Shown: positions 9,904 to 10,272 of the stretch, in pieces
Position numbering within the stretch: position 1 is the first letter of the stretch
Layout: every line of letters starts with the position of its first letter
Source: a virus
Virus record (IMG/VR): IMGVR_UViG_3300042731_008053
Strand: one strand, 5' to 3'
Length of the DNA stretch: 14,121 nucleotides
The notes under the pieces: model-generated
Seen by the model: only the letters and a program-made list of their open reading frames with translations
Databases searched by the model: none
What the model was told of the DNA's origin: nothing
Translations under genes and position numbers: made by a program

Positions 9904-10272
9904 ATGCTCACAGCAACCATGTCGTCACCCGGTGCACTGAACGATGGCGTTTGGGATTTCCTCACGAAGGTTTTCTCGCCAACACCCACAACAACGCCTT
10001 GCATCACGCCCGGCAACCCACCCGGATGTACGGTAGGCCCAAAGTGCATCACGCCTGGCAATCCGCCCGGCTGCACGACCTACCCCACGACGACAACCAC
10101 AACGACGCCCACGTACGTGCCCGGCGCGCCGTGCATCACGCCTGGGTACCCTCCGGGCTGCATTGTCCAGACCAAGTGGTATCAAGACTGGAAAGTCTGG
10201 GCGCTGATTTTGGGCGCCGTCGCTACTGTCGGTGGAGTGGTGTACTTCACCCGCACTCCTGCGACCGCGTAA
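9904..10272 (+). CDS. Tail-anchored protein with three Cys-bracketed CITPG(N/Y)PPGC repeats and a poly-Thr linker.
   Basis: PCITPGNPPGCT, KCITPGNPPGCT and PCITPGYPPGCI, plus TTTTTTTP. C-terminal TM VWALILGAVATVGGVVYF then TRTPATA. GAGGT SD 9 nt upstream. Confidence 0.65.
   Translation: MLTATMSSPGALNDGVWDFLTKVFSPTPTTTPCITPGNPPGCTVGPKCITPGNPPGCTTYPTTTTTTTPTYVPGAPCITPGYPPGCIVQTKWYQDWKVWALILGAVATVGGVVYFTRTPATA
9997..10164 (+). repeat. Three imperfect ~36-nt direct repeats encoding the CITPGNPPGC units, with a C/A-rich (ACn) poly-Thr-coding linker before repeat 3.
   Basis: tgcatcacgcc(c/t)gg(c/g)(aa/ta)(c/t)cc(a/g/t)cc(c/g)gg(a/c)tg(t/c) at 10000-10029, 10045-10074 and 10132-10161. Confidence 0.6.

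Follow-up and report, generated by a model that had tools for sequence, protein, structure and literature searches.

Positions 9904-10272 of a viral DNA stretch from IMG/VR (record IMGVR_UViG_3300042731_008053; 14,121 nucleotides, all of which are here called the window) raise the question of whether an open reading frame (ORF) built around three short cysteine-bracketed repeats is a gene at all, and what kind of protein the repeats and the single hydrophobic segment behind them would make. The original prediction, made from the letters alone, was of a tail-anchored protein with disulfide-stapled or possibly metal-binding modules on a membrane surface. Our analysis of the sequence indicates that 9904-10272 on the plus strand is a real coding frame and a lineage-specific orphan gene, whose expression at the protein level is predicted. 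A codon comparison of the repeat copies demonstrates purifying selection on the loop peptide. With good confidence, the product can be placed in a class of viral proteins that end in one common membrane anchor.

Coding frame and repeat units of 9904-10272

The elements of the gene and its 122-aa product are as follows.

9890..9893, plus strand: Shine-Dalgarno-like GAGG read from the sequence, at -14 to -11, 10 nt 5' of the ATG
9904..10272, plus strand: coding sequence of the 122-aa protein, from the ORF list; stop TAA at 10270-10272
9928..9975, plus strand: predicted amphipathic helix PGALNDGVWDFLTKVF, aa 9-24, following the Met-Leu start (AlphaFold2, AF2; predicted local distance difference test, pLDDT, ~59, which is low)
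10000..10029, plus strand: loop 1, CITPGNPPGC, aa 33-42, from the DNA repeat and the codon comparison
10045..10074, plus strand: loop 2, CITPGNPPGC, aa 48-57, with five synonymous differences from loop 1
10075..10131, plus strand: Thr/Pro-rich spacer TTYPTTTTTTTPTYVPGAP, aa 58-76, from the translation (AF2 pLDDT <50)
10132..10161, plus strand: loop 3, CITPGYPPGC, aa 77-86; its DNA departs from copy 1 at nine bases, seven of them in codon position 3
10177..10200, plus strand: juxtamembrane aromatic motif WYQDWKVW, aa 92-99, the shared-anchor signature
10195..10248, plus strand: transmembrane (TM) helix VWALILGAVATVGGVVYF, aa ~98-115 (hydropathy 1.9-2.0; AF2 helix 91-116)
10249..10269, plus strand: C-terminal tail TRTPATA, seven residues with one Arg, from the translation

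The protein sequence of this frame is ordered as MLTATMSSPGALNDGVWDFLTKVFSPTPTTTP-CITPGNPPGC-TVGPK-CITPGNPPGC-TTYPTTTTTTTPTYVPGAP-CITPGYPPGC-IVQTKWYQDWKVWALILGAVATVGGVVYFTRTPATA. Under a codon model trained on seven genes that are conserved in relatives, with scores given as log-likelihood in bits per codon, the frame scores +0.18 (+22.6 bits in total) and is the best of the six, within the range of the other window genes (0.13-0.25). The competing ORFs score lower: -0.33 for an antisense ORF of 155 aa, -0.04 for an antisense ORF of 84 aa and -0.18 for an overlapping plus-strand ORF of 159 aa. The GC content by codon position (0.49/0.65/0.70) is atypical compared to the conserved genes, and the second-position value is explained by composition, since the protein holds 19 Pro and 26 Thr (together 37%) in addition to 13 Gly and 6 Cys. 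Neither a sigma-70-like promoter nor a terminator was found on the plus strand between 9600 and 10800.

The six cysteines stand at aa 33/42, 48/57 and 77/86 and form three C-x8-C units, just as the original prediction had described them. The underlying DNA direct repeats are likewise present (10000-10032, 10045-10077 and 10132-10164; copies 2 and 3 are 85% and 73% identical to copy 1), with a unit of 30-33 nt and not the ~36 nt first proposed. Of the 33 nucleotides compared between copies 1 and 2, five are different, and all five differences are synonymous third positions (P ~0.002 if positions were random), which argues that the three-copy repeat is not a chance feature. Between copies 1 and 3 there are nine differences, seven of them in third positions. 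One antisense frame also accommodates most of the changes between copies, but it is interrupted by two stops, between and after the copies, so that only the plus frame unites all three.

Variation of the repeat number by slippage, as earlier suggested, finds no support, as the copies have diverged synonymously and the longest identical runs between them are 11-14 nt. Two public assemblies, JGI 3300035128 Ga0373565_0000079 (L257) and Logan SRR11696381 (L258), are 100% identical to the window over 9116-14121; they are possibly non-independent, and no variation in copy number was seen in them. The threonine spacer, thought to separate the units throughout, parts units 2 and 3, while units 1 and 2 are parted by TVGPK. 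A weak 12-nt tandem repeat lies within the spacer DNA at 10084-10112. Altogether, the Pro/Thr/Gly-rich stalk, predicted to be non-globular, spans ~65 residues with six thiols within 54 residues, and each ten-residue loop holds two Pro-Gly turns. The spacing within the cysteine pairs is constant at eight residues, whereas that between pairs is 5 and 19, and this difference suggests that the C-x8-C pair is the structural unit.

Relatives of the protein were sought widely. It had no match in Pfam, PHROGs or NCBIfam (the latter at E <= 1), and gave only chance TM matches to PDB sequences. The protein-database search that had been proposed for the repeat yielded no homologue among 5.8e9 clustered proteins, and an exhaustive phmmer search of 1.84e9 representatives returned a single protein, P0121. 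This match was judged spurious, as P0121 is a repetitive, junk-like sequence (LLCGTPPVCLARASWHRDW) in which the common CxTPPxC...W..DW is put down to chance. No match was obtained by tblastn against GenBank phages, by peptide-pattern scans of IMG/VR and metagenome contigs, or with a strict degenerate DNA motif in IMG/VR. The relaxed pattern C-x-T-P-G-x-P-P-G-C gave at least 240 single matches in metagenome and genome contigs; among the matches listed none was repeated, and nearly all were out of frame in GC-rich genes. Also contigs carrying an 86-91% identical copy of a conserved 236-aa protein of this locus had no counterpart of 9904-10272. By all of these sequence searches, the 122-aa protein falls in no described family.

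Membrane segment and the shared C-terminal anchor

The tail-anchored layout holds. The protein has one TM segment (98-115 of 122), less than ~30 residues from the C-terminus and followed by a seven-residue tail, and neither hydropathy (maximum elsewhere 0.76) nor AF2 showed a further TM in it or a signal peptide at its N-terminus. The TM segment was expected to be rich in GxxxG; it does contain small-xxx-small spacings (A100-G104, G104-T108 and A107-G111) but no literal GxxxG. A single-sequence AF2 model (overall pLDDT 45) contains two helices, 9-24 and 91-116, and leaves aa 24-90 without confident structure. The structure prediction that had been called for thus recovers the TM helix and is uninformative for the loops.

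At least eight ORFs in the window, and many ORFs per related locus, likewise end in one TM segment and a short basic tail, and in a large subset of these proteins the aromatic motif [WF]-Y-[KQT]-x-[WP] precedes the TM. Examples are ..TPWYKDWKILVPIALGGVVVVGGGVYAARTRRAQ in L262, ..LPIYKKWQFWAAAGGGALVLGTVTALLFRRKRAA in L002 and ..APGWYKTPIGI.. in L012 and L013; the 122-aa protein ends in ..TKWYQDWKVWALILGAVATVGGVVYFTRTPATA, and its WYQDW at aa 92-96 fits the motif. A profile was built from 23 anchors of related loci outside the window, the seeds being picked by regular expression, and when it was run against 147 window ORFs the 122-aa protein came out on top (E 8.2e-5, 16.1 bits). In BLASTP, WYQDWKV aligns with WYKDWKI of L262:18200-18562 (E 0.002). 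These matches point to membership of the class, and our confidence is good and not higher because the similarity is short and partly compositional, and because the regular expression used for the seeds also matches the 122-aa protein. The tail TRTPATA is basic by virtue of a single residue, while most class members carry 2-6.

A second common trait lies at the N-terminus. Met-Leu starts are found in 20 of 24 anchor-defined proteins of related loci versus ~9% of other ORFs, and the 122-aa protein also starts ML (MLTAT). The second residue is encoded by CTG, CTC, CTT, CTA and TTG within the class, and this use of five codons indicates that the preference acts on the protein. A GATAGG-type upstream motif was considered as a leaderless-promoter signal and dropped; the genes carrying it are orthologues, and its conservation is uninformative since it was inherited among them.

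Several class members are present per locus, in the window (542-3750 on the minus strand, 7714-9843 and 9904-10272) as well as in L001-L016, L262 and L264. The general layout is an ML start, often followed by a helix xxLQxALxxLA, then a variable middle, the aromatic motif, a Gly/Ala-rich TM and a basic tail. Two further members of the window are listed here with their profile scores.

8554..9843, minus strand: divergently transcribed neighbour with the same anchor (..PVWYKRPVFIALMLFAAAAAGGGVYYYVRKPKTV); anchor profile E 0.0034, second in the window
2866..3750, minus strand: protein of the same design (MLQAHYNGPLGFS ... PVYKKWWFWTAIGLAAAAGVGAVVYTRRYA); anchor profile E 0.089, and a sub-threshold GVDTG_CTERM match, E 0.035

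The anchor end of the 8554-9843 product reads ..PVWYKRPVFIALMLF..VRKPKTV. Its signal-peptide-like N-terminal stretch MRATISLMYLLTMLVASLG is probably an artefact of the most upstream TTG start, and the internal start MLVASLGASPADI (MLVASLGASP), which matches the class pattern, is probably the real one. In L262, the product of 18463-19188 on the plus strand combines two PG_binding_1 repeats (E 3.4e-10, above the Pfam cutoff) with a WYKNW-TM-basic anchor end, which suggests that at least some of the passengers act on the cell-wall side.

A close analogy for such an anchor is offered by the sortase and exosortase signals (LPXTG, GVDTG, LAVTG and PEP-CTERM). There too a signature, here WY-K/Q-x-W, precedes a TM and the protein ends in a basic tail, and there too many unrelated passenger domains carry one kind of anchor. 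Some class members give sub-threshold matches to sorting domains (GVDTG_CTERM, E 0.035; Microco_LAVTG, E 0.02), all below the curated cutoffs. The signature of the class is, however, aromatic and without an LPXTG-like motif, its proteins have no signal peptide at the N-terminus, neither the window nor the related loci showed a sortase-like gene, and the 122-aa protein itself has neither an NCBIfam match (E <= 1) nor a Sec signal peptide.

Cysteine pairing and alternative readings

A bias towards even numbers of cysteines is a mark of proteins in which these residues are disulfide-paired outside the cytoplasm. For class members that have four or more cysteines outside the TM, the count is even in 20 and odd in 3 (binomial P ~2e-4), a set of 23 that includes orthologues and is hence not made up of independent cases. 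Apparent orthologues in the class have 8, 14, 10 and 8 cysteines, always an even number. Together with the PG-binding member, this bias hints at an extracytoplasmic face for the class.

Analogous cysteine-bracketed Pro/Gly loops, of the form C-x8-11-C, occur in non-homologous class members. They are CPPGSQGSYPAC and CLPGSPGSYPTC in L014:3522-3950, CTLNPGDPVC and CEQDPNQSFC in L014:5507-5839, CPPGAVANQAGAC in L008:3056-3490 and CPAGQTYDNSGNC in L010:1320-1814. In these proteins the loops are combined with a low-complexity linker, of Ser/Gly/Gln where the 122-aa protein has Thr, and with the same anchor. The proposal of disulfide-stapled modules thereby gains from the pair being the unit, from the even-Cys bias and from the analogous loops, the closure of the disulfides themselves being presumed.

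From these observations we favour, as a model about evenly poised between right and wrong, a stalk protein that is anchored in a membrane, evolves fast, has loops each closed by a local disulfide and plays an accessory role at a surface or as a spacer. The C-terminal module of WYQDW, Gly/Ala-rich TM and short basic tail would insert the protein into a membrane, and as this anchor is common to the class, the membrane would be the one that the other members enter, that of the infected cell or of the virion. The N-terminal 97 residues would project from a face that is, or becomes, oxidising, on the cell-wall side. There each C-x8-C would close to a ring of ten residues that holds two Pro-Gly turns, three such rings would form small knobs resistant to proteases, and the Thr/Pro run would serve as an extended spacer, possibly O-glycosylated. 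Genes for a glycosyltransferase and a GDP-mannose dehydratase are found in some relatives and none in the window. The outcome would be a rapidly replaceable accessory element for the envelope or for interaction with the host surface. As to topology, one may think of an unrecognised export route, or of a tail-anchored protein whose loops become oxidised in the virion, or once lysis has taken place, and not before. The membrane side, the disulfide closure, the glycosylation and the biological role of the 122-aa protein are what we infer in this model.

Vaccinia virus L1 provides a precedent for parts of this model, as it has a C-terminal TM and no signal peptide and acquires intramolecular disulfides via a virus-encoded redox pathway. 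The single TM near the C-terminus, the lack of a signal peptide and the cysteine pairs outside the membrane are common to both proteins, and the gene of the 122-aa protein, like that of L1, stands among genes for similar viral membrane proteins. In contrast to vaccinia, the host here is bacterial, as seen from PG_binding_1 and M23 in the relatives, and there is no relation in sequence or fold. The ectodomain is a non-globular repeat and not a folded domain, and no sulfhydryl oxidase was seen in the window; the relatives hold a weak thioredoxin match and, as far as seen, no viral sulfhydryl oxidase.

Several points weigh against the model and the gene beneath it, in addition to the shortness of the anchor match and the shared ancestry within the cysteine counts. 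The support for the predicted product comes from the sequence. Public gene calls on identical DNA are blank at the locus in one case and give the antisense 155-aa ORF, 9925-10392, in the other. The stretch thus passed over or mis-stranded is 9822-10614 of the window (L257:707-1499, L258:811-1278), and it is probable that the Pro/Thr/Gly-rich composition, through its odd second-position GC, misleads gene finders here. A profile of the class N-termini does not match the 122-aa protein (E 16), although this profile does not discriminate for any window ORF. AF2 gives no structural backing for the loops, with pLDDT of 31-40 over aa 31-90. The charges flanking the TM (K91, K97 and D95 before, R117 alone after) appear to leave its orientation ambiguous. 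Furthermore, since there is no signal peptide, no recognised export route exists for the 97-residue N-terminal part, and if the protein is truly tail-anchored, its loops would face the reducing cytoplasm until lysis.

One alternative is that the cysteines form bonds between chains, so that the stalk would be a covalent link of the immunoglobulin-hinge or spanin kind, holding the protein in an oligomer with itself or with another cysteine-bearing class member. The small-xxx-small spacings of the TM favour helix packing, many co-encoded class proteins have cysteines as well, and an even count fits symmetric inter-chain bonds equally well. Nevertheless, this seems unlikely given that the spacing is fixed within pairs and variable between them, that two Pro-Gly turns lie inside each loop, and that the analogous loops retain the pair and vary the rest, all of which mark the pair as the structural unit.

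The two systems invoked by this alternative resemble the 122-aa protein in part. Hinges of IgG3 and IgA1 carry inter-chain cysteine links of the CPxCP type. Like these hinges and like mucin-like stalks, the protein has repeated cysteines in a Pro/Thr-rich, non-globular segment beside an anchor, and its threonine runs are of the kind that is O-glycosylated in mucin-like stalks, a modification that would be presumed here; unlike in the hinges, its cysteines are eight residues apart in discrete units. The phage spanins Rz/Rz1 are Pro-rich, Cys-linked and envelope-spanning, the i-spanin having an N-terminal TM and a periplasmic coiled coil and the o-spanin a lipobox. The protein shares with them that it is small, Pro-rich, cysteine-containing and membrane-tethered, and the next ORF (10317-10568) starts with a lipobox-like LLVAAC. 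It differs in that its TM is C-terminal and that it has neither a coiled coil nor a lipobox of its own; the window has no endolysin or holin gene next to it, and the neighbour at 10317-10568 has a poor codon score.

It is less probable still that the protein is a true tail-anchored one with a cytoplasmic N-terminal part, in which the cysteine pairs bind metal as a Zn, Cu(I) or Fe-S centre. The missing signal peptide, a seven-residue tail as in classical tail-anchored proteins and the six thiols in 54 residues would suit such an arrangement. Metal binding had been named as the second option for the repeats and becomes less likely because the only cysteine pattern is C-x8-C, with no CxxC knuckles and no His, and because the length of the loop varies among the analogous proteins, from 8 to 11 residues between the cysteines, which is awkward for a fixed coordination geometry. 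There is also no match to a zinc-ribbon or other metal-binding family in Pfam or NCBIfam, and the even-Cys bias and the PG-binding member point to the extracytoplasmic face.

That the ORF is non-functional has only a slight chance of being right. It would then be either a frame left open by chance in DNA of high GC or a very young gene that has no role, and the repeats would reflect a duplication at the DNA level. Such a reading would fit the lack of a homologue anywhere searched, the gene callers that passed over the ORF and the atypical GC by codon position. The last of these is accounted for by the Pro/Thr/Gly/Cys content, the codon score equals that of conserved genes, and the five wholly synonymous differences between copies 1 and 2, the anchor matching a profile from other genomes and the Shine-Dalgarno-like GAGG all argue for a gene.

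Bowman-Birk loops have the consensus T-P1-S-x-P-P-x-C. Membrane-displayed protease-inhibitor loops of the Bowman-Birk/SFTI-1 type, which would shield the virion or infected cell from an envelope protease or titrate it, are barely credible here: there are several short loops per protein with T...PPxC (a loop that is disulfide-closed in SFTI-1), T-P-G-N-P-P-G-C would align with the consensus from its Thr onward, and the loop comes in three copies, but the ring would have 10 residues and not 9 (CTxSxPPxC), P1 would be Pro and P1' is Gly in place of the conserved Ser, the six cysteines do not make up a Bowman-Birk inhibitor framework, and neither Pfam nor the PDB gave a match. In Bowman-Birk-type inhibitors, the conserved nine-residue loop is closed by flanking cysteines (PMC8410836). 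A ribosomally synthesised and post-translationally modified peptide such as a lanthipeptide was also considered and rejected, as no modifying enzymes lie nearby and a TM anchor is present.

The locus and its virus lineage

The window is packed with unannotated genes, and the following features were assigned in it outside the anchor class.

102-578, minus strand: dual-specificity phosphatase (DSPc, E 7e-9; active-site TCNAGLNRSG; 54% identity in L262)
3851-5554, plus strand: transglutaminase-like protein with an N-terminal TM and a LAGLIDADG-type intein at ~4352-5323, aa 168-491
6275-6784, 6788-7126 and 7039-7659, plus strand: three tandem paralogues with a common C-terminal block
8105-8308, plus strand: 67-aa ORF with CEFC ... 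CRRC, of small zinc-ribbon look (weak Zn_ribbon_Nudix match, E 0.004)
10317-10568, plus strand: 83-aa ORF next after 9904-10272, with the lipobox-like MRAVVVLLLVAAC (LLVAAC) at its start and five Cys; codon score -0.17, uncalled publicly and of uncertain status
10614-11282, minus strand: HTH_17 protein, from the family search
~13815 (13815-14121; L257:4700-6991), plus strand: start of a 763-aa Mom-like DNA-modification protein (Pfam Mom, E 1e-17; phrog_1384)

The intein of the transglutaminase-like gene sits exactly before the putative catalytic cysteine (..EFKGGD / C..VVHN / CDDHSVL..); the gene is uninterrupted in most relatives, and the intein form is found in L013. The block of the tandem paralogues, HGY(K/N)RN(D/C)..W..(G)(L/F)(L/M)FP(V/L)xT(P/T)xVAxxQG(F/Y), is present in most related loci, and the paralogues have a sub-threshold match to DUF6962. 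The Mom-like protein also holds a LAGLIDADG_3 segment, which probably makes it a second intein-bearing gene, and its reading from ~13815 implies that a minus-strand ORF at 13869-14090 is likely spurious. No Rfam or tRNA matches were found in the window.

The order of transglutaminase, small membrane proteins, helix-turn-helix gene, 262-aa protein and 236-aa protein is kept in the relatives. Related loci carry genes for Mom-like, HTH_17, Peptidase_M23 and PG_binding_1 proteins, and also DUF3440/PAPS-reductase with ParB_N, HNH and LAGLIDADG genes. Neither in L001-L016 nor in L259-L263, which are closer relatives, is the segment 8105-10568 matched in full; partial exceptions are the C-terminal third of 8554-9843, which weakly matches L015, L016 and L002, and 7714-8091, which matches L262. 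The 429-aa product of 8554-9843 had no homologue among the 5.8e9 proteins. There are 473 clusters related to the conserved, jelly-roll-like 236-aa protein, found on contigs of up to ~230 kb, and none bears a functional name. No terminase, portal or tail genes were found within +/-10 kb, GenBank phages and plasmids gave no match to the window, and the virus lineage was not identified in the literature searched. Judged by its gene content, the window looks like part of an undescribed large virus of bacteria.

One may speculate further that the WY(K/Q)xW-TM-basic tail and the Met-Leu start together form a virus-specific sorting or assembly signal, which would bring cassette-like passengers into one membrane of undescribed bacterial viruses of 80-230 kb, perhaps an internal virion membrane under a jelly-roll capsid protein. 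The 122-aa protein would then be a minimal passenger, a display scaffold of three disulfide-stapled decapeptide loops. We regard this proposal as quite unlikely to hold in full.

A ten-residue Pro/Gly ring under purifying selection would be a very compact natural peptide motif, and the locus illustrates how viral genes rich in Pro, Thr and Gly are missed by standard gene callers or put on the wrong strand. More notable than the single orphan protein is the anchor class, together with the uncharacterised virus lineage. The lineage is widespread and yet unannotated, and many of its proteins share the C-terminal anchor and the Met-Leu start while their middles are freely swapped. Should this module serve as a signal for sorting, it would explain how these viruses populate a membrane, and it would provide a handle for locating their envelope and host-interaction proteins.

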